From: Escherichia coli
GTDB taxonomy: Bacteria; Pseudomonadota; Gammaproteobacteria; Enterobacterales; Enterobacteriaceae
DNA length: 64,000 bases
NCBI RefSeq assembly: GCF_024223415.1
Contig: NZ_CP100503.1
Reading direction: 5' to 3' (one strand)
Shown: positions 22,137-45,786 of the stretch, piece by piece
Layout of the letters: every line of letters begins with the position of its first letter
Numbering within the stretch: the first letter of the stretch is position 1
Notes under the pieces: generated by a model
The model's database searches: none
What the model was told of the DNA's origin: nothing
What the model saw: only the letters and a program-made list of their open reading frames with translations
Position numbers and translations under genes: made by a program

Positions 22137-22153
22137 TTTGCTCTAATAAATTG
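22137..22153 (+). promoter_or_regulatory. C1-operator-like motif TTTGCTCTAATAAATTG (operator of immunity module i)
   Basis: Consensus match just after pacB stop. Confidence 0.5.
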
Positions 22154-22284
22154 TGTTTTTTGACTGCCGATGTTACATTGAACCTGACCTCTTGCGCCTT
22201 GAGGCTTTTTCGGTTTATGCTTATCAGGCACCTCATTAAAACGGGTGCCGGGATTGGCCTCCCGCTTAAGTCTAAGGCGATACA

Positions 22285-22305
22285 GACGCCGCTCGCGTCT
22301 TTTTT
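22285..22305 (+). terminator. Hairpin GACGC-loop-GCGTC followed by T6
   Basis: Stem-loop plus T-run in the leader of immunity module i. Confidence 0.45.
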
Positions 22306-22334
22306 GTATCGGCGTACACGCACACCTCTACAAT

Positions 22335-22410
22335 GGTGGGCTGTATGGGGCTACCTTCGGGTAGGCTGGTTACCTTGGACGCCAGTAAGGCCAACTCCGT
22401 ACAGTCCACC
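22335..22410 (+). ncRNA. c4: c4-like antisense repressor RNA, module i (about 76 nt)
   Basis: Shares scaffold GGTGGG...ATGGGG...TTCGG...CTGGTT-[b']-GCCAGT-[a']-C.CCGT...CCACC with the other two modules; carries CCTTGGAC and GGCCAA complementary to GTCTAAGG (22270, 22452) and ATTGGCC/ATTGGTC (22253, 22420). Confidence 0.55.
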
Positions 22411-22470
22411 GCCAGCAAGATTGGTCTCTTCTGCGGTGGTTACATACCAACGTCTAAGGAGGCTGCCAAT

Positions 22471-22692
22471 ATGGCTACTATCCCTACCCCAACTCATCCT
22501 GAATTTATCTGGCGCTTTTACTCCTGCCAAAAACGTCACTATCACTTCGTTATTGCACCAACAGAAGATGAGGCCCGCTCTCAGCTTCCTGACGCCCCAT
22601 GTATTTTCTCTGCCCGTTTTTCCACTGATTCACGCAATTCTCTCAGTTACTGGTGCCTCCCTGTTAACGCTTCTGCTCAGGAGGGACTATGA
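22471..22692 (+). CDS. icd: Icd-like protein (73 aa), translationally coupled to ant
   Basis: 73-codon ORF (MATIPTPTHPEFIWRFYSCQKRHYHF...) with ATGA overlap to ant; AGGAGG SD. The 119-aa track ORF 22333..22692 is an upstream extension across the RNA gene. Confidence 0.6.
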   Translation: MATIPTPTHPEFIWRFYSCQKRHYHFVIAPTEDEARSQLPDAPCIFSARFSTDSRNSLSYWCLPVNASAQEGL

Positions 22693-23804
22693 GAACGTCA
22701 TTAGTCACCCGTGAAGAGATGATCGAGGCAATTGAACAGCACACTGCCTGTATCAGTACCAGGGATATACCGGGCGTTATTGCCAACTACTTCATGATCA
22801 CCAAACAACTTTACCGGAGAAAGGACAAGAACGCGGTTCACCGCATTCTGCTAACCGATATCCGCGAATACCTGCTCGAACAGGGTCATCTGAATTACGC
22901 AACCGTCGCAGCCGAAACACGCAAGGAGGCACACAGAATGAAAGCAACTAACGTTAAATCAGAAAAAATTCATGCAACTTCAGTTCAGGAATCAGAGCTG
23001 GTGGTTGTTCAGAATCAGTCTGATGAAATTCCCGTTCTGGAATGGCTGGGAGTGCGTGTAGTGACAACCAAGATCCTTGCTAAGGGGTATGGGACCGATG
23101 CGGATAACATCAAGAAGAACTTTTCCCGTAATGCTGAACGTTTTTGTGAAGGCAAGCATTTCTATAAAGTTATTGGAGATGATTTGAACAATTTGCGGGT
23201 GACTTTAAGTAACTCACAAAATCCCATCTCTCCTAAAGCCCGTTCACTCATCCTCTGGACAGAACGCGGCGCTGCCCGTCACGCTAAAATGCTCGAAACC
23301 GATCAGGCATGGGCATTCTTTGAAAAACTGGAAGACAGCTACTTCCGGCAAAAAGAACAGCAACCGGTTGCAATCCCCCAAACATTACCAGAAGCCCTAC
23401 GCCTGGCTGCCGAACTGGCTGAACAAAAGCAGCTTCTGGAACAGAAAGCCCACCAGCTAAATCAGCAGCTGGTGGCCGCCGCTCCTAAGGTCGATTTTGC
23501 CGACCGGGTATCAGTAGCTAAAGGGATCCTGATTGGGAATTTTGCAAAGGTTGTTGGACTTAAGCAAAACGCGCTGTTTGCCTGGTTACGGGAGAACGGC
23601 ATCCTGATAGCGTCCGGTGGACGTAAAAATGTGCCGTTCCAGCAGTACATCAACGCGGGGTATTTCACGGTGAAAGAAGTGGTGCTGGATGATGAAGATG
23701 GCTACCAGATACGGTTGACGCCTCAATTAACGGGTAAAGGCCAGCAGTGGTTGACGCGTAAACTGCTCGATGCTGGCTTGTTAAAACCGGTGGCGGCTGA
23801 ATAA
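22689..23804 (+). CDS. ant: Antirepressor Ant-like protein, paralog i (371 aa; AntA/Bro-N-like central domain, conserved Ant C-terminal domain)
   Basis: Conserved N-terminal 85 aa and C-terminal about 150 aa shared with four other genes in the window; immI-type context. Confidence 0.65.
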   Translation: MRTSLVTREEMIEAIEQHTACISTRDIPGVIANYFMITKQLYRRKDKNAVHRILLTDIREYLLEQGHLNYATVAAETRKEAHRMKATNVKSEKIHATSVQESELVVVQNQSDEIPVLEWLGVRVVTTKILAKGYGTDADNIKKNFSRNAERFCEGKHFYKVIGDDLNNLRVTLSNSQNPISPKARSLILWTERGAARHAKMLETDQAWAFFEKLEDSYFRQKEQQPVAIPQTLPEALRLAAELAEQKQLLEQKAHQLNQQLVAAAPKVDFADRVSVAKGILIGNFAKVVGLKQNALFAWLRENGILIASGGRKNVPFQQYINAGYFTVKEVVLDDEDGYQIRLTPQLTGKGQQWLTRKLLDAGLLKPVAAE

Positions 23805-26327: not shown

Positions 26328-26333
26328 CTTAAA

Positions 26334-27386
26334 ATGTCTAATGTCCTGACCGTACACCAAAATTTGCCTGCATTACCGGTCGATGCAACGAGTGATGAGG
26401 TTCGCAAGAACCTGATGGACATGTTCAGGGATCGCCAGGCGTTTTCTGAGCATACCTGGAAAATGCTTCTGTCCGTTTGCCGGTCGTGGGCGGCATGGTG
26501 CAAGTTGAATAACCGGAAATGGTTTCCCGCAGAACCTGAAGATGTTCGCGATTATCTTCTATATCTTCAGGCGCGCGGTCTGGCAGTAAAAACTATCCAG
26601 CAACATTTGGGCCAGCTAAACATGCTTCATCGTCGGTCCGGGCTGCCACGACCAAGTGACAGCAATGCTGTTTCACTGGTTATGCGGCGGATCCGAAAAG
26701 AAAACGTTGATGCCGGTGAACGTGCAAAACAGGCTCTAGCGTTCGAACGCACTGATTTCGACCAGGTTCGTTCACTCATGGAAAATAGCGATCGCTGCCA
26801 GGATATACGTAATCTGGCATTTCTGGGGATTGCTTATAACACCCTGTTACGTATAGCCGAAATTGCCAGGATCAGGGTTAAAGATATCTCACGTACTGAC
26901 GGTGGGAGAATGTTAATCCATATTGGCAGAACGAAAACGCTGGTTAGCACCGCAGGTGTAGAGAAGGCACTTAGCCTGGGGGTAACTAAACTGGTTGAGC
27001 GATGGATTTCTGTCTCTGGTGTAGCTGATGATCCGAATAACTACCTGTTTTGCCGCGTCAGAAAAAATGGTGTTGCCGCGCCATCACCCACCAGCCAGCT
27101 ATCAACTCGCGCCCTGGAAGGGATTTTTGAAGCAACTCACCGATTGATTTACGGGGCTAAGGATGACTCTGGCCAGAGGTACCTGGCCTGGTCTGGACAC
27201 AGTGCCCGTGTCGGAGCCGCGCGAGATATGGCCCGCGCCGGAGTTTCAATACCGGAGATCATGCAAGCTGGTGGCTGGACCAACGTAAATATTGTCATGA
27301 ACTATATCCGTAACCTGGATAGTGAAACAGGGGCAATGGTGCGCCTGCTGGAAGTTGACATCCTCCCCCACCTTCGCACTTCGTGA
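26334..27386 (+). CDS. cre: Cre tyrosine recombinase with IS-altered C-terminus (350 aa vs 343 in P1)
   Basis: MSNVLTVHQNLPALPVDATSDEVRKNLMDMFRDRQAFSEHTWK... matches P1 Cre through ...MVRLLE; last residues VDILPHLRTS are encoded by the inserted IS end. Confidence 0.9.
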   Translation: MSNVLTVHQNLPALPVDATSDEVRKNLMDMFRDRQAFSEHTWKMLLSVCRSWAAWCKLNNRKWFPAEPEDVRDYLLYLQARGLAVKTIQQHLGQLNMLHRRSGLPRPSDSNAVSLVMRRIRKENVDAGERAKQALAFERTDFDQVRSLMENSDRCQDIRNLAFLGIAYNTLLRIAEIARIRVKDISRTDGGRMLIHIGRTKTLVSTAGVEKALSLGVTKLVERWISVSGVADDPNNYLFCRVRKNGVAAPSPTSQLSTRALEGIFEATHRLIYGAKDDSGQRYLAWSGHSARVGAARDMARAGVSIPEIMQAGGWTNVNIVMNYIRNLDSETGAMVRLLEVDILPHLRTS

Positions 27387-27405
27387 CTCAGGAGGGGGAT
27401 TCCCA

Positions 27406-28638
27406 TTAGTGGGTGACGGCTGATTGCTCAGCGTCTGGTTCCTGCTTCAACGGGCGGTCTGACTGCACCGTCCCTCCACAGGCAAGTACGGCGTGCCCCG
27501 CCGCTAAAATGTTGCGAGCGCCGTTTACATCGGCGTTCGCTGTATATCCACAAGCCCGACACACGAATTTACTTTGTGTCAGGCGGTTTTCTTTCGCTGT
27601 ATGACCACAGCACGCGCAACGCTGGCTTGTGTACGCTGGCGGAACAGCAAGCACCTGACCACCACGCCAGAGCTGCTTGTACTCAAGCTGGCGGCGCATT
27701 TCATACCAGCCCTGATCCAGTATCGAACGGTTTAAACCTGATTTTGCCCGGACATTGCGCCCCGGCTGGCTGACCGTACCCGCTGCTGACTTTGACATGT
27801 TGCTGACCTTCAAATCCTCAATGACTATCATTGCGTGGTTTTTGCTGACGGTCGTTGTGACTTTGTGAAGGTAGTCCCTGCGGATATTTGCAATACGGGA
27901 ATGCAGTTGCTGTATTTTGCGTTTCTGCTTCTGCCAGTTGTTGCTGAATTTGACCCTGCGGCTTAACTGTCGCTGAAGTCTCGCCAGCTTCTTCTGGTTT
28001 TTCTGAAAACTGTTTACAGGTTCAAAGACTGTGCCATCTGACAGCGTGGCGAGTTTAGCCACGCCAGCATCCAGACCGACTATCGTTGTGCTTGTGTGAT
28101 TTGGTTCTGCCGTTTCAATTTCAACCTGAAACGAGATATACCACTGTCCCGCTAACTGACTGATTGTCGCATTTTTGATTTTACCGTTCACACGTTGAGA
28201 TTGCCGGAATTTTACCCACCCAAGACCTGACGGTAGCTTCACTCTGCGATTTTCAAGGCAGCAATATTTCTCAAAGTTCACAAAACGGATTGAGTCTCTG
28301 CCCTCATTTTTTCGTTTCCATACCGGAGCCTTAGCTGCGAGCTTTTTATCAAAACAACGTTTCCATGCGGTATGCAGGTCTTTCAGCTTTTGTTGCAGAT
28401 TGTCGGTATAAGCATCCTGTAAGAAGATATATTCCGGCATTTTTTTCCACACTGTAATCATCCGGTTCAACTCGAAAGCCGAAGGTAACTTTTCGCCTGA
28501 GCCAAGTACGCGCTTTGTCTCCGCAAGACCTAAATTCCAGACAAAACGGGCGCAACCACATAACTGCCGCAAACGCTGCGACTGTTCATGCGTTGGTTCC
28601 AGTCTGAATTTGTAGGCTTTCAGGATTAGCATCATCAT
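27406..28638 (-). CDS. tnpB: TnpB (RuvC-like, RNA-guided nuclease family) of IS-A (410 aa)
   Basis: RuvC motifs ([29 protein letters not shown]) and CxxC...CxxC zinc finger; C-terminal half near-identical to the IS-B TnpB. Confidence 0.85.
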
Positions 28639-28690
28639 TCAGTGTGTAGTAGATTTTCTTGCAATATTACTGTTTTTACGGCCAACCTCA

Positions 28691-29095
28691 ATGCAAAAAT
28701 ACAAAATCAATCGTTCAAGACATGCTGCCTTCCTTTTGCATGTTCATCTTGTCTTTGTAACAAAATACCGTCGAAAGATACTGGGAGAGTTACACTGTGC
28801 AGCATTCCATCAGTATGCAGCAGAAGTCTGCCGTGACTTTGGGGCAGAACTTAAAGAAAGTAACGGAGATGTCGATCATGTCCACATGCTGATCGAATAC
28901 CCACCAACAGTGCAGCTTTCGGTACTGGTTAACTCACTGAAAGCAGTGACATCCCGCCGTCTGCGAAACGAATTTCTTGATTTGCGGGGGGCATACGGAA
29001 AAGCCGTGCTCTGGTCGAGGTCATACTTTGCTGGCTCCTGCGGAGGTGCGCCGCTGGAAGTTGTGAAGCAATATATTCAACATCAGCGAGGCTGA
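28691..29095 (+). CDS. tnpA: TnpA Y1 (HUH) transposase of IS-A (134 aa)
   Basis: HVHLVF (HUH) motif and IS200-like size. Confidence 0.8.
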   Translation: MQKYKINRSRHAAFLLHVHLVFVTKYRRKILGELHCAAFHQYAAEVCRDFGAELKESNGDVDHVHMLIEYPPTVQLSVLVNSLKAVTSRRLRNEFLDLRGAYGKAVLWSRSYFAGSCGGAPLEVVKQYIQHQRG

Positions 29096-29200
29096 GCACC
29101 CTTCGGGCTTTTCAAGCCCGTCCAAATTCCCCTGCCGCCTTATGTCGGCGGGAGTACCCTTTGGAAGTTAAGATGGCGATTAGCCATTAACGCGTAAATG

Positions 29201-29217
29201 ATTGCTCTAATTCTTTG
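29201..29217 (+). promoter_or_regulatory. C1-operator-like motif ATTGCTCTAATTCTTTG
   Basis: Partial consensus match upstream of 29234 ORF; similar site at about 29677-29693. Confidence 0.4.
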
Positions 29218-29233
29218 ATATTTATGGTGACAT

Positions 29234-29545
29234 ATGAGAAAGGATTTCAACATCGACGGAAAATATGTAGTGCTGTCTGTAAGCACTAATATTCAGTCGC
29301 CAGCCGTCATTGTCACTGTAAAGCTGAGCGATAGAATACCTGATATTGACTCAATATCCGTTGCGTTCCCTGTCAAAAGTATTCGTAGTGCTGAACATTT
29401 CGTGATGAATGCCACCGAGGAAGAAGCACGGCGCGGTTTTGCTAAAGTGATGTCTGAGTTTGGCGAACTCTTGGGTAAGGTTAACAATGTCCTTTCAATC
29501 AGTTCAGCAAGGTCCAAAGCGTTAACAGCTTCCATGATGAAATAA
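29234..29545 (+). CDS. Hypothetical protein (103 aa)
   Basis: ORF with upstream operator-like motif; no motif recognised. Confidence 0.35.
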   Translation: MRKDFNIDGKYVVLSVSTNIQSPAVIVTVKLSDRIPDIDSISVAFPVKSIRSAEHFVMNATEEEARRGFAKVMSEFGELLGKVNNVLSISSARSKALTASMMK

Positions 29546-29569
29546 AAAAAGCCTGGCAAGGAGCCAGGC
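29544..29569 (-). terminator. Rho-independent terminator candidate for ant paralog ii (A-run, GCCTGGC-loop-GCCAGGC on plus)
   Basis: 7-bp stem; T-run follows on minus strand. Confidence 0.5.
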
Positions 29570-29759
29570 TGCACAAAAGAGCGGGTTTGTATTCCGCATC
29601 CAATCAATCAAGAAGGAGTATAGCACACAGGTACTGAAGTGAAAAAATGTGATTCGCGATTAACAAAATATCTACCATTGCTCTAATTGATTGATATAAT
29701 TAAGCCGCAGTTTTTGTCAACTACGAAGACATTGCCATTATAGACTCCGTGACATCATT

Positions 29760-29783
29760 GGCGGCCGAAAGGCCGCCTTTTTT
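29760..29783 (+). terminator. Rho-independent terminator candidate (GGCGGCC-GAAA-GGCCGCC-T6)
   Basis: GC-rich 7-bp stem, tetraloop, T6. Confidence 0.55.
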
Positions 29784-29785
29784 AA

Positions 29786-30850
29786 TCATTCAGCCGCCAC
29801 AGGTTTTAACAAGCCAGCATCGAGCAGTTTACGCGTCAACCACTGCTGGCCTTTCCCCGTTAATTGGGGCGTCAGCCGTATCTGGTAGCCCTCTTCATCA
29901 TCCAGCACCACTTCTTTCACTGTGAAATATCCGGCGTTTATGTACTGCTGGAACGGTACATTTTTACGTCCACCGGACGCTATCAGGATGCCGTTCTCCC
30001 GTAACCAGGCAAACAGCGCGTTTTGCTTAAGTCCAACAACCTTTGCAAAATTCCCAATCAGGATTCCATTAGCCACTGATACCCGGTCGGCAAAATCGAC
30101 TTTAGGAGCGGCGGCCACCAGCTGCTGATTTAGCTGGTGGGCTTTCTGTTCCAGAAGTTGCTTTTGTTCAGCCAACTCGGCAGCCAGGCGGAGGGCTTCG
30201 GGGAGTGTCTGGGGGATCGCTGGAGAAGCAGCGCTAACCTGCTGCAACTCCTCCAGCTTGTCGATCAACGAACGGCGGACCGCTTTTGACTCGCGCGCGG
30301 CAACTCGCAGGGCTTGTTTGTAGGTCATGGTTATGACCTCAAAAGAGCGCCCAGCCCTTGTGCCATGGGATTTTACGAAAGTTTCGTAAAATTCCCCATC
30401 AAGTTCATCCTTAATTCTATTGAGAAAATCGTTATTGCGGATCTCATTTTCCCCACATAGCTTGCGCGCCTCATTGACCATCTTTAACAGTGTCTGGCTG
30501 TCGATTGTGTCGCCCGTACTGGGGATAACATCCATGGCTGGTAGTGGTGTGGATTCTATCAAAGGCTTTGTAACGACAACATCTGGTTTGCTTGCTTTCA
30601 TTCTGTGTGCCTCCTTGCGTGCTTCGGCGGTTACGGTTGCATAATCAAGACGACCCTGTTCGAGCAGGTATTCACGGATATCAGTTAGCAGAATGCGGTG
30701 AACCGCGTTCTTGTCCTTTCTCCGGTAAAGTTGTTTGGTGATCATGAAGTAGTTGGCTATAACACCAGGAATGTCCCTGGCGCTGATACAGATTGTGTGC
30801 TGTTCAATAGCCTCGATCATTTCTTCACGGGTAACTAATGACGTTCTCAT
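29786..30850 (-). CDS. ant: Antirepressor Ant-like protein, paralog ii (354 aa; Rha-like central domain)
   Basis: Shares N- and C-terminal domains with paralogs i and iii; different central domain; coupled to icd. Confidence 0.65.
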   Translation of the reverse strand: MRTSLVTREEMIEAIEQHTICISARDIPGVIANYFMITKQLYRRKDKNAVHRILLTDIREYLLEQGRLDYATVTAEARKEAHRMKASKPDVVVTKPLIESTPLPAMDVIPSTGDTIDSQTLLKMVNEARKLCGENEIRNNDFLNRIKDELDGEFYETFVKSHGTRAGRSFEVITMTYKQALRVAARESKAVRRSLIDKLEELQQVSAASPAIPQTLPEALRLAAELAEQKQLLEQKAHQLNQQLVAAAPKVDFADRVSVANGILIGNFAKVVGLKQNALFAWLRENGILIASGGRKNVPFQQYINAGYFTVKEVVLDDEEGYQIRLTPQLTGKGQQWLTRKLLDAGLLKPVAAE

Positions 30851-31068
30851 AGCCCCTCCTGAGCAGAAGCGTTAACAGGGAGGCACCAGTAACTGAGAGA
30901 GTTGCGCGAGTCAGTAGAAAAGCGTGCAGAGAAAATGCAGGGAGCGTCAGGAAGCTGAGAACGGGCCTCATCTTCTGTTGGTGCAATGACGAAGTGATAG
31001 TGACGTTTTTGACAAGAATAGAAGCGCCAGATAAATTCCGGGCGTGCGCAAGGATTGGCATTAACCAT
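30847..31068 (-). CDS. icd: Icd-like protein (73 aa), module ii
   Basis: MVNANPCARPEFIWRFYSCQKRHYHF...; ATGA overlap with ant. Confidence 0.6.
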   Translation of the reverse strand: MVNANPCARPEFIWRFYSCQKRHYHFVIAPTEDEARSQLPDAPCIFSARFSTDSRNSLSYWCLPVNASAQEGL

Positions 31069-31118
31069 AGTTACGGCCTCACAAGTTGAATTAACAACCT
31101 GCTACCCGCTGTCAAACA

Positions 31119-31195
31119 GGTGGCAGGACGTGACAGGGTTGACAGACTGGCACTTGTGAAACCAGCAGGCCGAAGCCTCCCCATCACGCCCCACC
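31119..31195 (-). ncRNA. c4: c4-like antisense repressor RNA, module ii (about 77 nt)
   Basis: Same scaffold as module iii but a'/b' are CTGTCAA/CACAAGT, with matching targets TTGACAG/ACTTGTG. Confidence 0.6.
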
Positions 31196-31385
31196 ATAAT
31201 TCGGGCGTAACGCGGTTTTACGGACACAAAAATACCGCAATAACGGAGTGATGCGGTTGTCCGCACAAGTATTCAGGCTGTCAAACCCGGTCGCAGAATT
31301 TGCTACGACGCAGGAACTATAAGCCTGAACGACGGGAAGATCAATAGTCTGGCGTCCAATAGTAGTTTATTTGTTCCAATAAATC

Positions 31386-31402
31386 AAATTTATTAGAGCA
31401 AT
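31386..31402 (-). promoter_or_regulatory. C1 operator, exact consensus on minus strand (ATTGCTCTAATAAATTT)
   Basis: Exact 17-bp match; precedes c4/icd/ant module ii. Confidence 0.6.
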
Positions 31403-31633
31403 ACAATCTGGTTGAATGTTTCCTCTCCGAGGTTGCAATGTGCACACTTATTGTTTTATTTGTATGCACTAATAAATATATTATTTTTAATAATAAATAA
31501 TTGACAACTGACAAGTGACTTCAGTCAGAATCATCACACGCCCGGTACGGATGGATCCCTTTTCAAATATTCCATGGACGGCACAGTCTGAGTACCGGGC
31601 GCTACCTTCAGTTGTATTGCTAAGCCGCCGCTG

Positions 31634-32302
31634 GTGGCTTTTCTTTTTTGTAGGGGCGCTATGGATAAGAAAATATGCGTTGTTTCAATGTGCGTCGGCA
31701 AACCGGCGTCAATGACTGCTGCATGGATCAACAATGAGCTGATCATGGCTGAGCGGACCAGCTACCCTGAACGCCGCCGCGATATGGAACTCCAGCTGCT
31801 GCGCGAATTGCGAGAAAAAGAGGAAAAGGGTTTTATCGTGCTGGTGGAAGAGGAAAACAGCTTTATTACCGGTCGAGTTGGCCAGCGTGTAAGGTTGCGT
31901 GATCCCTTCATGAACGGCAGACCGGTACTGATTGAAGCAATGCAGATTTACAAGGAATTGGAACGCCAGAAAGCGATCAAGTTACCGCGCAAGGAATCCG
32001 GCAAATACATCCTTCACCAAAGCATCTTCGATTCCGAACACGATAAAAAAGGCGATGAATTTTTCAACATCAACTGGAGCGAAATAACGACAGAGCACGT
32101 TCTGACGTTGTTATGCTGCTTCGCAACGGAATATAACAACGTTGCAAGCGCCGACTACATCAGGGCAATGGCTGGAGAAGTTGAGGCACGCCAGGAACCA
32201 TCGTTACTAAGCCCTCTGATTAACATAATTCGCGGCACACAGAGACTTGCGGAAAAAAGCGTTCCACACGGAATCTTAACTGGGAAGGGAAACTATTTTT
32301 AA
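31634..32302 (+). CDS. Hypothetical protein (222 aa; likely start at internal Met MDKKIC...)
   Basis: ORF in an AT-rich island between two inverted immunity modules; no motif recognised. Confidence 0.4.
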   Translation: MAFLFCRGAMDKKICVVSMCVGKPASMTAAWINNELIMAERTSYPERRRDMELQLLRELREKEEKGFIVLVEEENSFITGRVGQRVRLRDPFMNGRPVLIEAMQIYKELERQKAIKLPRKESGKYILHQSIFDSEHDKKGDEFFNINWSEITTEHVLTLLCCFATEYNNVASADYIRAMAGEVEARQEPSLLSPLINIIRGTQRLAEKSVPHGILTGKGNYF

Positions 32303-32335
32303 CATCCCCAAATCCTTTTGGGGAACAACTCATTC

Positions 32336-32653
32336 TTACAATAGCTGCCCCATACATTGTCTCCAGGCACTCCCCTCATTACCGTTATCAAGAAACGTAG
32401 AGGTTGCATAAGGAATGCCTCTGATTTGTGTTGATGTGAATGGACCATCAGACGTCGAAGTTGTGCGCAGTTTTGATGTAAACTCGTAATTTCCACTGAT
32501 GCCTTTCTCTGCCAGAGCTTTTGATTTTGTGATAACTAAATCTGCACATTTCTCTGCGGCTACATATTGCGGGTCTTTTTCAGCTTTTCCGGCACATGCA
32601 GTTATCGTTAAAACGATAGCTGCGGCTAACAAATTACCTAGTTTCATCTGCAT
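32336..32653 (-). CDS. Putative lipoprotein (105 aa)
   Basis: Signal peptide with lipobox LTITAC; convergent with 31634..32302. Confidence 0.5.
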   Translation of the reverse strand: MQMKLGNLLAAAIVLTITACAGKAEKDPQYVAAEKCADLVITKSKALAEKGISGNYEFTSKLRTTSTSDGPFTSTQIRGIPYATSTFLDNGNEGSAWRQCMGQLL

Positions 32654-32752
32654 ACCTTATTAAGTGCATTAAAAACAGTAGGTTGCCAAGGTTTTAAACA
32701 AATTTCAATCCTCCATGACGCTCAATATGAGCAAAAATAACACACAAACATC

Positions 32753-32769
32753 ATTGCTCTAATAAATTT
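32753..32769 (+). promoter_or_regulatory. C1 operator, exact consensus ATTGCTCTAATAAATTT
   Basis: Exact 17-bp match upstream of c4/icd/ant module iii. Confidence 0.6.
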
Positions 32770-32959
32770 GATTTTTTAGGGCAAATAAACTACCATTGCG
32801 CACTGCCCTATTGATCTCCTTACCGTTCAGGCTTATATTCATGCCGTCGTAGCAAATTCTGCGACCGGGTTTAGCAGCCTGAATACTTACGCGGACAACC
32901 GCAGATATCCGATATTGCGGTATTTTCATGTCCGTATAACCGCGTTACGCCCGAATTAT

Positions 32960-33036
32960 GGTGGGGCGTGATGGGGAGGCTTCGGCCTGCTGGTTTCGTA
33001 AGTGCCAGTCTGCTAACCCCGTCACGTCCTGCCACC
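32960..33036 (+). ncRNA. c4: c4-like antisense repressor RNA, module iii (about 77 nt)
   Basis: Carries CGTAAGT (32997) and CTGCTAA (33010) complementary to ACTTACG (32885, 33069) and TTAGCAG (32871, 33039); the last overlaps the icd SD. Confidence 0.6.
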
Positions 33037-33086
33037 TGTTTAGCAGCGGGTCGCAGGTTGTTTTATCAACTTACGAGGCCGTAACT

Positions 33087-33308
33087 ATGGTTAATGCCAA
33101 TCCTTGCGCACGCCCTGAATTTATCTGGCGCTTTTACTCCTGCCAAAAACGTCACTATCACTTCGTTATTGCACCAACAGAAGATGAGGCCCGCTCTCAG
33201 CTTCCTGACGCCCCATGTATTTTCTCTGCCCGCTTTTCCACTGATTCGCGCAACTCTCTCAGTTACTGGTGCCTCCCTGTTAACGCTTCTGCTCAGGAGG
33301 GACTATGA
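33087..33308 (+). CDS. icd: Icd-like protein (73 aa), module iii
   Basis: 73 codons; stop overlaps ant start. Confidence 0.6.
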   Translation: MVNANPCARPEFIWRFYSCQKRHYHFVIAPTEDEARSQLPDAPCIFSARFSTDSRNSLSYWCLPVNASAQEGL

Positions 33309-34417
33309 GAACATCGTTAGTTACCCGTGAAGAGATGATCGAGGCAATTGAACAGCACACTGCCTGTATCAGTACCAGGGATATACCGGGCGTTATTGCC
33401 AACTACTTCATGATCACCAAACAACTTTACCGGAGAAAGGACAAAAACGCGGTTCACCGCATTCTGCTAACCGATATCCGTGAATACCTGCTCGAACAGG
33501 GTCATCTGAATTACGCAACCGTCGCAGCCGAAGCACGCAAGGAGGCACACAGAATGAAAGCAACTAACGTTAAATCAGAAAAAATTTATGCACCTTCAGT
33601 TCAGGAATCGGAACTGGTGGTTGTTCAGAATCAGCCGGATGAAATTCCCGTTCTGGAATGGCAGGGAGTACGTGTCGTGACAACCGAAACTCTTGCTAGA
33701 GGGTATGGGACCGAAACTAATAACATCAAAGTTAACTATACGCGTAATGCTGATCGCTTTGAGGAAGGTAAACATTACTTTCTACTAACTGGTTCAAAAT
33801 TAAAAGAATTGAAGGACAAGGTTACTCAAAGTAACTTAGTCGCACCGCGAGCAAAGCACCTCACTCTCTGGACGGAACGCGGCGCAGCCCGCCACGCTAA
33901 AATGCTCGAAACCGATCAGGCATGGGCATTCTTTGAAAAACTGGAAGACAGCTACTTCCGACAAAAAGAACAGCAACCGATCGCAATCCCCCAGACGCTT
34001 CCTGAAGCTCTGCGCCTGGCTGCCGAACTGGCTGAACAAAAGCAACTTCTGGAACAGAAAGCCCACCAGCTAAATCAGCAGCTGGTGGCCGCAGCCCCTA
34101 AAGTCGAGTTTGCCGACCGGGTATCAGTGGCCAAGGGGATCCTGATTGGGAATTTTGCAAAGGTTGTTGGACTTAAGCAAAACGCGCTGTTTGCCTGGTT
34201 ACGGGAGAACGGCATCCTGATAGCGTCCGGTGGACGTAAAAATGTGCCGTTCCAGCAATACATCAACGCCGGGTATTTCACGGTGAAAGAAGTGGTGCTG
34301 GATGATGAAGATGGCTACCAGATACGGTTGACGCCCCAGCTAACTGGGAAAGGCCAGCAGTGGTTGACGCGTAAACTGCTCGATGCTGGCTTGTTAAAAC
34401 CGGTGGCGGCTGAATAA
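33305..34417 (+). CDS. ant: Antirepressor Ant-like protein, paralog iii (370 aa; AntA/Bro-N-like central domain)
   Basis: Near-identical N/C-terminal domains to paralog i; central domain diverged. Confidence 0.65.
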   Translation: MRTSLVTREEMIEAIEQHTACISTRDIPGVIANYFMITKQLYRRKDKNAVHRILLTDIREYLLEQGHLNYATVAAEARKEAHRMKATNVKSEKIYAPSVQESELVVVQNQPDEIPVLEWQGVRVVTTETLARGYGTETNNIKVNYTRNADRFEEGKHYFLLTGSKLKELKDKVTQSNLVAPRAKHLTLWTERGAARHAKMLETDQAWAFFEKLEDSYFRQKEQQPIAIPQTLPEALRLAAELAEQKQLLEQKAHQLNQQLVAAAPKVEFADRVSVAKGILIGNFAKVVGLKQNALFAWLRENGILIASGGRKNVPFQQYINAGYFTVKEVVLDDEDGYQIRLTPQLTGKGQQWLTRKLLDAGLLKPVAAE

Positions 34418-34459
34418 TGGAAGAATGCCCGGTTGATGCCGGGCAAAAGGGCGGAAAGT

Positions 34460-41752: not shown

Positions 41753-42835
41753 ATGTCAATGGAGCCTCCCCTTCTCTGCCGACGTTCAGGGGGGTTTATG
41801 AAAACACCTCTCGTCACCCGTAATGACATAGCCGAAGCGATCGCCCTGCATACTGCCTGTATGCCGACACGGGAGATCCCCGGCGCAATTGCCAACTATT
41901 TCATGATAACCAGACGTTTTTATACCCGAACAGATAAGGCTGTGATCAACAAGCTACTGATAGCCGAGATCAGGGATTATTTGATTGAACAAGGACGTCT
42001 ACGTTACGCAACAGTGGCAGCAGAAATGAGAAAGGAGGCACATAGAATGACCGGTAATAATTTAAATGTTGAAAAACCAGCACCTGTTGCTTCAGCTACG
42101 CCAGCACCAGCCGTGAATATCATCCCCAACACCGGAGACACAATCGACAGCCTGACACTGTTAAAGATGGTCAATGAAGCGCGTAAGTTATGTGGGGAAC
42201 CAGAGGTTCGGAACAACAAATTCATCGAAAAAATACTCGATGAGCTTGATGGTGAGCACTACACAAAAAGTGTAGTGGAAAAAATGAACAAAACATCAAT
42301 GCTTGTCATAACCATGACTTTCAAACAAGCCCTGCGAGTCGCCGCGCGCGAGTCAAAAGCGGTCCGCCGTTCGCTGATCGACAAACTGGAAGAATTACAG
42401 CAGGCAAACTCACCTACCCCATCGATCCCCCAGACATTACCAGAAGCCCTACGCCTGGCTGCCGAGTTGGCAGAACAGAAAATGCAGCTGGAACAACAGC
42501 TGGTGGCCGCAGCCCCTAAAGTCGATTTTGCCGACCGGGTATCAGTGGCCAATGGAATCCTGATCGGGAACTTTGCAAAGGTCGTTGGACTTAAGCAAAA
42601 CGCCCTTTTCTCATGGTTGCGCCAGAACGGCATTCTCATGGCTTTTGGTGCGCGCAAAAACGTACCGCGCCAACAGTACATCAACGCCGGGTATTTCACG
42701 GTGAAAGAAGTGGTGCTGGATGATGAAAATGGCTACCAGATACGGCTGACGCCCCAATTAACGGGTAAAGGCCAGCAGTGGTTAACTCGCAAGCTACTTG
42801 ATGCTGGTTTGTTAAAACCAGTAGCAATAGGTTAA
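41753..42835 (+). CDS. ant: Antirepressor Ant-like protein, paralog iv (likely start MKTPLVTRN near 41798); upstream icd reduced to its last 14 codons by IS-B
   Basis: Rha-like central domain similar to paralog ii; the sequence right after the IS end is homologous to the icd 3' end. Confidence 0.6.
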   Translation: MSMEPPLLCRRSGGFMKTPLVTRNDIAEAIALHTACMPTREIPGAIANYFMITRRFYTRTDKAVINKLLIAEIRDYLIEQGRLRYATVAAEMRKEAHRMTGNNLNVEKPAPVASATPAPAVNIIPNTGDTIDSLTLLKMVNEARKLCGEPEVRNNKFIEKILDELDGEHYTKSVVEKMNKTSMLVITMTFKQALRVAARESKAVRRSLIDKLEELQQANSPTPSIPQTLPEALRLAAELAEQKMQLEQQLVAAAPKVDFADRVSVANGILIGNFAKVVGLKQNALFSWLRQNGILMAFGARKNVPRQQYINAGYFTVKEVVLDDENGYQIRLTPQLTGKGQQWLTRKLLDAGLLKPVAIG

Positions 42836-42841
42836 CAAAAG

Positions 42842-42873
42842 AAAAAAACCTGCCAGCAAACTGGCAGGTTTCT
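42842..42873 (+). terminator. Hairpin ACCTGCCAG-CAAA-CTGGCAGGT with flanking A/T runs
   Basis: 9-bp perfect stem after ant paralog iv. Confidence 0.5.
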
Positions 42874-42913
42874 GAGCAGATCGTCCAACCCGATCTGGAT
42901 CGAGCCAGAAAAA

Positions 42914-42930
42914 TTTGCTCTAATAAATTT
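42914..42930 (+). promoter_or_regulatory. C1-operator-like motif TTTGCTCTAATAAATTT upstream of kilA-repL
   Basis: 16/17 consensus match about 70 bp upstream of kilA. Confidence 0.55.
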
Positions 42931-44971: not shown

Positions 44972-45153
44972 TACAATCGTTACGGGTGCTTGAGGCTATC
45001 TGCTTCAGGCATTACCCGAAAAGCAGATAGAAGAAAGCCCCAGATAACATTACGCGTCCTGCAAGACGCTTAACATTAATCTGAGGCCATCTCTATGCTT
45101 AGCATACGTAGATTAACCCTCTCCCCTTTTAAGGAGCAAGGAATTTTTTACTG

Positions 45154-45786
45154 CTATGCCGCATTTCCAATTATGGATTCAGCGACCAGAACAACCCCAT
45201 GCTTACTTCGATCTGGGTGTTCACTCCATATCTCGGATTCAGGAATACTTACCCCGTCATAGCAAACACGTTCGCCGTCAAACGGGTAATACTGAGCGGC
45301 ATCGGTGTCAAGGATAAACACTTTTAGCTCGGAAGAGCGACGGGCGATGTGTTGCCAAAGAGCTTTTCCACCTTCGTATTGCTCATTATCACTGAGCAAA
45401 ACAACACCAGCTTTTGAGGCTACGGTTTCGTAAACAAAAGTAGCTAAACCGACATCCCGGACGGTTCCATCAACCACGATACCTTCAATCTGGGCAACAT
45501 CGCTATCCTCCCAGAACTTCCTTACCAGTACGCCTTCAAGCTGCGGGCGACGTTGAAGTTCAAGAGTAGCGACAACCTTATGGCGCATATCACCATCGAT
45601 AATAGAAGGCGCAGCCTCTATTACAGCTGCAAATGGGGTTTTGGAATCCCATATAACCTGGTAAAGCACACCCTGGATGGTAACTCCGTCCAGGATCGAA
45701 AATCGACGAGCGACAGTACCCGGGGAGTACGACATTGGAATCACAGCCATTTTAGAGTCCCCCTTTAACAGTACAGGCACAAACAT
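45154..45786 (-). CDS. Hypothetical protein (210 aa; start probably internal Met)
   Basis: ORF; no motif recognised. Confidence 0.4.
   Translation of the reverse strand: MFVPVLLKGDSKMAVIPMSYSPGTVARRFSILDGVTIQGVLYQVIWDSKTPFAAVIEAAPSIIDGDMRHKVVATLELQRRPQLEGVLVRKFWEDSDVAQIEGIVVDGTVRDVGLATFVYETVASKAGVVLLSDNEQYEGGKALWQHIARRSSELKVFILDTDAAQYYPFDGERVCYDGVSIPESEIWSEHPDRSKHGVVLVAESIIGNAA

Follow-up and report, generated by a model that had tools for sequence, protein, structure and literature searches.

Does a short segment enclosed by two inverted immunity modules of a P1-like phage-plasmid form a defense island that can be flipped? The segment spans 31400-32700 of a 64,000-nucleotide (nt) stretch of Escherichia coli DNA (contig NZ_CP100503.1, assembly GCF_024223415.1), hereafter the window, which is part of such a phage-plasmid. 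An initial annotation, produced by a model reading the letters and a list of open reading frames (ORFs), proposed an AT-rich cargo island of two genes for exclusion or defense. Its basic observations hold in part. The two convergent ORFs exist (31634..32302 on the plus strand, 222 amino acids (aa) with a GTG start; 32336..32653 on the minus strand, 105 aa) and the signal peptide of the second ends in the lipobox LTITAC. The segment is flanked by two outward-facing c4-icd-ant modules, with a Rfam C4 RNA and a c4-a1b1 element on both sides. The first ORF, described as a protein of unknown function, is the mat gene of phage P1 (97.4% DNA identity), a core gene of the P1 lineage and not cargo. The interpretation is mostly wrong. 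This known gene and one uncharacterized moron lie in a known hot spot, with a distinct extra immunity cassette on either side. The best overall explanation, which we consider highly probable, is that the core gene mat sits between two refilled hot spots, with the lipoprotein gene as a moron and the long inverted repeat as a by-product.

mat is a core gene in its native position

Alignment with phage P1 places 31464-32303 on P1 2629-3469 at 97.4% DNA identity. For this stretch the P1 record annotates Omat (a C1 operator), Pmat (sigma-70), LPmat (late promoter) and mat ('maturation control'), all of which are conserved in the window. Two mismatches separate P1 2628-2696 from 31463-31531, both outside the annotated elements. 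PHROG 1837 aligns with residues 1-213 of Mat end to end (212 profile positions, E 1e-111) and database homologues carry the name 'maturation control protein'. The first gene is thus the conserved mat in its native position with its operator and promoters, which leaves no two-gene cargo island. Clear homology, here to a known phage function, is also the outcome that the initial annotation itself had named as speaking against its proposal. Among PLSDB plasmids, mat occurs in ~690 and the adjacent mat-lipoprotein pair in only 16.

While the identity and the regulatory elements of mat come from the present analysis, its role is taken from the literature. P1 mat corresponds to P1_gp006 (Lehnherr et al. 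2001, as cited in PMC10695390). The literature cited in PMC10695390 lists mat as essential, although the CRISPR interference (CRISPRi) knock-down missed it. The gene has no mention in Gonzales 2022. With its own C1 operator and its sigma-70 and late promoters, mat would be under C1 repression in the prophage and transcribed from Pmat/LPmat during lytic growth, when particle maturation would depend on it.

The claim that the segment is strikingly AT-rich does not hold. Its guanine-cytosine (GC) content is 44.6% compared to 47.7% for the window, which corresponds to the 14th percentile of 1300-nt windows (mean 47.7%, standard deviation 2.8%). The body of mat is average (47.8%), the lipoprotein gene has 42.6%, and promoter and leader stretches alone are low (34-41%).

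The start of mat is likely ATG 31661, giving 213 aa, and not GTG 31634. We take 31661-32302 as mat because RefSeq annotates a 213-aa mat from ATG 31661 on a 99.4%-identical plasmid, the PHROG profile has 212 positions, and the largest Mat cluster (P0062, 1834 members) has 213 aa. Forms of 250 and 262 aa are also common. The annotated P1 frame of 250 aa is not found in the window due to a difference of a single base: a run of four G in the window as opposed to five G in P1 (31551-31661 region) removes the 37 N-terminal codons of P1 from the frame. A terminator-like hairpin with a T-run lies in the leader directly before the internal ribosome-binding site and ATG, which suggests that the 5' extension in the P1 annotation may belong to the leader and not to the coding sequence. 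The hairpin (31622-31650) folds no better than shuffled sequence and is a lead only. At the other end of the gene (32170-32302), homology to the window mat stops at nt 510-597 of 642 in many P1-like plasmids. The boundary of the res-mod hot spot thus often lies inside the 3' end of mat, and Mat proteins vary at the C-terminus. In the structure model, the 15 C-terminal residues are disordered.

The structure model of Mat, built from a 13-sequence alignment, is of low confidence (predicted local distance difference test (pLDDT) 62, predicted template modeling score 0.58) and shows a core of beta-beta-beta-alpha-beta-alpha-beta order. In the family alignment, D2, E64, D124 and E145 are fully or almost fully conserved acidic residues, a likeness to the RNase H-like nuclease domain of TerL. 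Based on the model, Mat might tentatively be assigned a terminase-nuclease-like (RNase H-like) fold. Differences from TerL are the low pLDDT and the lack of any Pfam, NCBIfam, PADLOC or PDB sequence-profile match for Mat. Hhalign comparisons with the PacB of the same plasmid and with a 26-member TerL nuclease alignment (PF20441-type) stayed at a probability <1% and lend no support. If true, a stand-alone terminase-nuclease-like Mat would fit the particle maturation phenotype. The fold represents a testable structural hypothesis for the poorly understood Mat of P1.

Both hot spots beside mat are refilled

The gene order in P1 is cre, c8, ref, mat, res, mod, lxc, ulx and darB (P1 record; table in PMC10695390). 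The window is collinear with P1 at 26332-27354 (cre), at 29170-29783 (c8 to just before ref, P1 1454-2069) and at 31464-32303 (Omat to the end of mat), and P1 homology stops just past the mat stop codon. On the upstream side, the ref ORF (P1 2070-2628) is swapped precisely for module ii (29784-31463) and nothing else is replaced. On the downstream side, 32304 to ~34460 replaces the res-mod slot and contains the lipoprotein gene and module iii. Beyond ~34460 follow a gene of unknown function at the lxc position (PHROG 2160), ulx (PHROG 1629) and darB. A complete c4-icd-ant cassette has taken the exact place of the ref ORF, and the place of res-mod in P1 is refilled with the lipoprotein gene and a second cassette.

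An Oref-like operator (29677-29693) and sequence aligned to the P1 ref promoter (within 29170-29783) outlast the loss of ref and face the 3' end of ant-ii. As the promoter-region sequence points into ant-ii, transcription would be convergent.

Both hot spots, on the ref side and on the res-mod side, were documented already. Venturini et al. (PMC6906374) designated the res-mod region RD-1 and found icd-ant homologues there in pSvP1. The same study describes other elements with insertions between c8 and mat, and some with an ant gene between pacB and c1. Among 77 P1-like plasmids, res-mod ('region 1') and simABC are among eight variable regions (PMC9603915). In our plasmid search, pSvP1 (NZ_MN510446.1) carries the same lipoprotein gene together with an icd-ant module. 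Neither PMC6906374 nor PMC9603915 discusses the lipoprotein, and the word 'lipoprotein' was not found in PMC6906374.

The flanking cassettes carry distinct immunity specificities

Compared to immI of P1 and P7, modules ii and iii are both complete and contain, in order, a C1 operator, a promoter region, the a1/b1 sites, C4 RNA, the a2/b2 sites, icd and ant. The C4 target sites were located by the coordinates of the P1 record itself. P1 and module ii share the a-site TTGACAG, P7 and module iii the a-site TTAGCAG. All four have different b-sites (GTTAGTG in P1, GATTGTG in P7, ACTTGTG in module ii, ACTTACG in module iii). Each C4 RNA carries the exact complement of its own a2 and b2, whereas no more than one of these sites is matched in the other alleles. 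The changes compensate exactly across a1/b1, C4 and a2/b2 (31069-31402 on the minus strand, 32753-33086 on the plus strand). At the sequence level, this triple compensation indicates that each cassette is a working unit with its own specificity. As the target specificities differ, the cassettes are distinct immunity alleles rather than redundant recombination substrates. A Rfam search at E <= 1 recovered no RNA family between the repeat arms.

Such cassettes are found in 656 of 5426 complete E. coli genomes, with a median of one and a maximum of six per genome, and the plasmid closest to the window holds four. The heteroimmunity of P1 and P7 resides in immI (summarized in PMC6906374). Stacked alleles presumably protect the resident prophage more broadly against the antirepressors that heteroimmune relatives produce. 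The stacking of c4-icd-ant cassettes with different, internally compensated antisense specificities in P1-like plasmids fits a broadened superinfection immunity among heteroimmune relatives.

The window contains further immunity-like sequence. A third module lies between pacB and c1 (22137-23804), where an IsrK-like RNA (22228-22305) directly precedes a C4 RNA (22329-22416) that is more divergent. Downstream of it, ORFs occupy the icd and ant positions. A partial fourth copy of the ant 3' region (42106-42930), with 79-86% identity to the other modules, is located near a near-consensus C1 operator (42914-42930).

The inverted repeat is very probably a by-product

The inverted repeat noted initially is real and far beyond chance, and it is larger than the reported ~600 bp (arms of 811 nt plus arms of 446 nt). 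Beyond the inner arms, outer arms of 446 nt (29775-30220 and 33983-34428) are 93% complementary, and the two whole cassettes of ~1.65 kb are inverted copies that diverge in the middle. Identical runs reach 60 nt within the inner arms and 107 nt within the outer arms. At the inner tip of both inner arms, 17 nt match the P1 C1-operator consensus ATTGCTCTAATAAATTT perfectly. The window has 15 such consensus sites compared to 0.2 expected by chance. The cassettes both face away from mat, so that the sequence they have in common makes up a long inverted repeat with C1 operators at the inner tips. The repeat is in all likelihood an incidental by-product of two paralogous, outward-facing insertions beside mat, and not a switch.

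Misassembly or a recent duplication-inversion can also yield long inverted repeats. Such an origin is extremely improbable here, as the arms are merely 90-93% identical, the central regions of ant and the compensated C4 specificities differ, and four independently sequenced complete plasmids share the structure.

A second alternative is that the mat-like ORF and the lipoprotein gene form a single exclusion or defense island, which the repeats flip as a switch. The long repeats and their identical runs would suffice for homologous recombination, so that the claim of potential invertibility holds in the sense that RecA-mediated inversion is physically possible. The place of the lipoprotein gene beside c4, resembling that of sim, would also suit an exclusion island. 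However, the first gene is the core P1 mat with its own regulation. The distributions of the two genes differ (~690 versus 16 plasmids) and the lipoprotein gene travels without mat function in IncF plasmids. Neither Mat nor the lipoprotein matches PADLOC-DB v2 at E <= 1. Both arms around mat were found in only four complete genomes, all plasmids, from a Japanese isolate, two bovine O111:H11 strains and a porcine strain (three backgrounds). The orientation is identical in all four, with cre-c8 on the upstream side of mat, though the neighboring cargo differs. The sequence AAACCNAGGTTT, the consensus crossover core of the Cin/Hin/Gin type, is absent from the window at one mismatch or fewer. No recombinase gene lies between c8 and ulx among the ORFs of the window or in the annotated near-identical plasmid. 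As the segment includes the upstream region of each gene, it is not obvious that flipping would alter expression. A switch of this kind is hence very unlikely, and we infer that the segment does not invert in vivo. The by-product of two insertions remains the preferred explanation of the repeat.

A small lipoprotein family without known function

The sole true cargo gene is a stand-alone moron or conversion gene encoding a small lipoprotein. Its start is likely ATG 32647, giving 103 aa, as annotated by RefSeq on a 99.4%-identical plasmid and with an AAGG box 7 nt upstream. The N-terminus MKLGNLLAAAIVLTITAC matches the lipobox pattern [LVI][ASTVI][GAS]C. Of 20 full-length relatives in the family alignment, 16 have the lipobox cysteine, and the remaining four begin with a plain signal peptide. 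Two cysteines (C36 and C100) are invariant and a motif, IPY..ST.LDNG.PGSAWR.CM, is conserved. Together, signal peptide or lipobox, the two invariant cysteines and the motif point to an exported, disulfide-bonded domain. In E. coli, the Lol system sorts lipoproteins with a residue other than Asp at position +2 to the outer membrane. The lipoprotein has Ala at +2 and is probably subject to Lol-dependent outer-membrane sorting. The mature protein is accordingly predicted to be lipid-anchored with one periplasmic disulfide. An AlphaFold2 model (pLDDT 84.6) is compact, with a helix, a long beta-hairpin and a second helix, and contains the disulfide.

An exhaustive, profile-free search of 1.8 billion cluster representatives recovered 23 relatives, of which 22 were kept. 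The remaining one (P0019), a repeat protein of 1457 aa, is of low complexity and was discarded as a false positive. All relatives are small proteins from Enterobacterales and a few other Gammaproteobacteria. The lipoprotein belongs to PHROG 16031, a family of unknown function. The remote-homology and structure searches proposed in the initial annotation gave no relatives outside the lipoprotein's own family in Pfam, NCBIfam, PADLOC, PDB or Foldseek. There was no Pfam match for the single sequence or for the 22-member alignment, and no match to NCBIfam, PADLOC-DB v2 or PDB sequence profiles. No function-annotated PHROG matched at E <= 0.01, exclusion lipoproteins included, and tblastn against 50,697 phage records returned no match. 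Fold searches of PDB and AFDB50 retrieved no structural neighbors outside the family. Weak Foldseek matches to TolC fragments in AFDB50 were judged meaningless. A literature search found the RefSeq accessions of the lipoprotein named in no paper.

The lipoprotein gene travels among mobile elements

A block of ~90% identity, comprising ~85 nt of the mat 3' end, a hairpin, the lipoprotein gene and its upstream region, is shared with IncF conjugative plasmids. Approximately 77 of these plasmids carry the cassette with the ~85-nt mat remnant between finO and hok/srnB-repA2 (e.g., pVR50B 5900-6430, and similarly pU90-4). Because the mat remnant is also found in the IncF copies, a P1-like element is the most likely source from which the cassette reached IncF plasmids. 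On Enterobacter phage-plasmid-like contigs, other plasmids and CP4-57-like islands, more distant relatives occur as single genes. On three unrelated prophage contigs (L025 3470-3697, L026 4001-4255, L027 4001-4216), the relative lies on the opposite strand between holin or Rz-like spanin PHROG genes and the small terminase gene. The lysis-terminase interval, on the opposite strand, is the classic moron slot where lambda carries bor. No C4 RNA adjoins the distant homologues.

Within the phage-plasmid, the gene starts at 32647 on the minus strand, 106 nt from the C1 operator Oc4-iii (32753-32769, plus strand), and is divergent from the operator and the c4 promoter. The initial annotation had placed the pair where P1 carries sim. 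This is correct in that the lipoprotein gene is divergent from the c4 of module iii as simABC is from c4 in P1. The backbone slot itself is the ref/mat/res-mod neighborhood and not immI.

As a lipoprotein, the protein would sit in the envelope of the lysogen or plasmid host and alter it. An exclusion-type role is favored because the sim-like placement recurs. By this analogy, the lipoprotein might possibly alter the host envelope, with exclusion of incoming phage or DNA as its most likely effect. A more far-reaching and rather doubtful proposal is that the 103-aa lipoprotein founds a family of envelope-level exclusion proteins, which would keep phage or plasmid DNA from entering the cell or would mask a receptor. 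The family would move as a single-gene cassette among P1-like phage-plasmids, IncF plasmids, integrative islands and prophages, and occupy the c4-side niche held by sim in P1 and upf50.5 in P7.

The distribution of the gene could also reflect host fitness or virulence conversion in the manner of lambda Bor or F TraT (e.g., serum resistance, adhesion or envelope robustness). Distant relatives lie between lysis- and terminase-PHROG genes on the opposite strand like lambda bor, many IncF plasmids from clinical and animal E. coli carry the gene, and it also occurs on CP4-57-like islands. We consider such a role unlikely given that neither sequence nor fold resembles annotated PHROG, Pfam or PDB families, and that the position beside c4 parallels sim, an exclusion locus. 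A small, disulfide-bonded and periplasm-facing protein with a strongly conserved surface motif (IPY..ST.LDNG.PGSAWR.CM), which stands alone on many mobile elements, might instead be an orphan periplasmic inhibitor or immunity protein directed against a muralytic enzyme, bacteriocin or secreted toxin. In the contexts examined, however, no cognate toxin or enzyme gene is conserved beside the lipoprotein gene, and this role appears quite improbable.

Several points weigh against the proposed reading of the locus. If the long form of Mat is the functional one, mat in the window would be N-terminally truncated. A scan for the sigma-70 consensus revealed no convincing promoter for the lipoprotein gene. 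Four genomes are too few to exclude low-frequency inversion, assemblies report the majority isomer only, and identical runs of 60-107 nt would permit RecA recombination. The lipoprotein has no similarity to SimC, P7 Upf50.5/50.0, annotated PHROG exclusion lipoproteins or PADLOC models. Exclusion is hence a plausible role by analogy, with no homology behind it.

The main value of the analysis is a correction, as the locus should not be counted as a new defense locus or switch. A more modest gain is a small, well-defined and structurally confident lipoprotein family of no known function, common to phage-plasmids, IncF resistance plasmids and prophages.

Other features of the window

Table 1. Features of the locus around mat, with positions in the window.
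Feature	Position	Strand	Evidence or remark
ant-ii, antirepressor of module ii, 354 aa	29786..30850	-	PHROG 63 anti-repressor Ant, E 4e-114; KilAC antirepressor in 99.4%-identical plasmid
Inner left repeat arm	30592..31402		Pairs with 32753-33563; 811 nt, 90% complementary; 89.5% identity
icd-ii, 73 aa	30847..31068	-	PHROG 1426; Icd-like in 99.4%-identical plasmid
C4 antisense RNA, module ii (P1-type a-site, unique b-site)	31116..31201	-	Rfam RF01695, 68.6 bits; complementarity analysis
a1/b1 target sites, module ii	31270..31322	-	Rfam RF03163 (c4-a1b1), 56.8 bits
C1 operator (Oc4-type), inner tip of left arm	31386..31402	-	Perfect ATTGCTCTAATAAATTT match; aligns with P1 Oc4
Spacer of module ii, 61 nt	31403..31463		No P1 counterpart; P1 homology begins 31464; common to phage vB_EcoM-Ro157c2YLVW
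Omat, C1 operator of mat	31463..31480		Position-for-position identical to P1 2628-2645, annotated Omat
Pmat sigma-70 promoter, overlaps late promoter LPmat	31501..31531	+	Corresponds to P1 2666-2696; conserved in alignment
Terminator-like hairpin and T-run in mat leader, just before ribosome-binding site and ATG	31622..31650	+	Pattern scan
mat, maturation control protein, 213 aa	31661..32302	+	97.4% DNA identity to P1 mat; PHROG 1837; RefSeq WP_097427905.1 'maturation control protein'
Block common with IncF conjugative plasmids	32218..32732		~90% identity; ~85 nt of mat 3' end, hairpin, lipoprotein gene, upstream region
GC-rich hairpin of 8 bp between convergent genes, no U-tract	32305..32324		-12.1 kcal/mol, z -4.0; within IncF-shared cassette
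Small lipoprotein gene, 103 aa (105 aa from 32653), sole true cargo gene	32336..32647	-	Lipobox ITAC, two invariant Cys, C-terminal motif; PHROG 16031
Inner right repeat arm	32753..33563		Pairs with 30592-31402
C1 operator (Oc4-type), inner tip of right arm	32753..32769	+	Perfect consensus match
a1/b1 target sites, module iii	32833..32885	+	Rfam RF03163, 54.6 bits
C4 antisense RNA, module iii (P7-type a-site, unique b-site)	32954..33039	+	Rfam RF01695, 70.8 bits
icd-iii, 73 aa	33087..33308	+	ORF; annotation of near-identical plasmid
ant-iii, antirepressor, 370 aa	33305..34417	+	PHROG 63, E 9e-135

Outside the locus (Table 1), an IS200/IS605-type element of 1815 bp (27355-29169; tnpB 27406-28638 on the minus strand, tnpA 28691-29095 on the plus strand) is inserted in cre, ~11 nt upstream of its stop codon. 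P1 434-1456 corresponds to 26332-27354, and homology from P1 1454 onward resumes at 29170. The cre ORF now spans 26334-27386, and the encoded Cre has 350 aa and a changed C-terminal tail. No such insertion is present in the near-identical plasmid pMTY1886. A sok antitoxin RNA of a hok/sok-type addiction module was identified with Rfam at 44984-45158.

Comparison with known systems

The mat gene corresponds to P1 mat in DNA sequence (97% identity), in its position between the ref and res-mod slots, and in Omat and Pmat/LPmat. It differs by the run of four G instead of five, which closes the annotated 250-aa frame and leaves a product of 213 aa. The downstream insertion resembles RD-1 or 'region 1' of pSvP1, where the slot likewise begins at the mat stop codon and contains the lipoprotein gene and an icd-ant module. 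Unlike there, a further module in inverted orientation stands in place of ref in the window plasmid, and its presence gives rise to the inverted repeat. Helix-turn-helix and DUF3944 genes that follow ant-iii in other members are missing in the window plasmid. With the P1 C-segment and other Cin-type segments, the locus shares a segment between inverted repeats in a P1-like genome. In contrast to these, the arms are whole gene cassettes of 1.6 kb at 90% identity and not short crossover sites. The tested crossover core and an adjacent invertase are absent from the window, and public genomes show a single orientation (n=4).

The placement of the lipoprotein gene has parallels in both P1 and P7. 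The simABC genes of P1 also encode exported proteins directly upstream of, and divergent from, Oc4 and the c4 promoter, and simC is annotated as superimmunity. In P7, upf50.5 and upf50.0 (an outer-membrane lipoprotein and a secreted DUF5384 protein) are divergent from c4, as is the window lipoprotein gene. The proteins themselves differ, with BLASTP E values of 0.2-2.9 against P1 SimC and P7 Upf50.5/50.0 and hhalign matches to the signal peptide only. For SimC, the only Sim protein covered by the comparison, the BLASTP E value was 2.9. Furthermore, the adjoining module in the window is an extra copy in the res-mod slot and not the canonical immI. In P7, upf50.5 and upf50.0 occupy the place of simABC (2008-3072), and the RefSeq name 'DNA methyltransferase' for upf50.5 looks like a mis-annotation.

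Compared to Bor of lambda, Cor of phi80 and N15, Llp of T5 and TraT of F, the lipoprotein lacks a match to function-annotated PHROGs at E <= 0.01 and has a distinct predicted fold with no structural neighbors. It is similar to all of these in being encoded by a small, stand-alone lipoprotein gene on mobile elements. Relatives of the window lipoprotein occupy a bor-like slot on the opposite strand with lysis and terminase PHROG neighbors.

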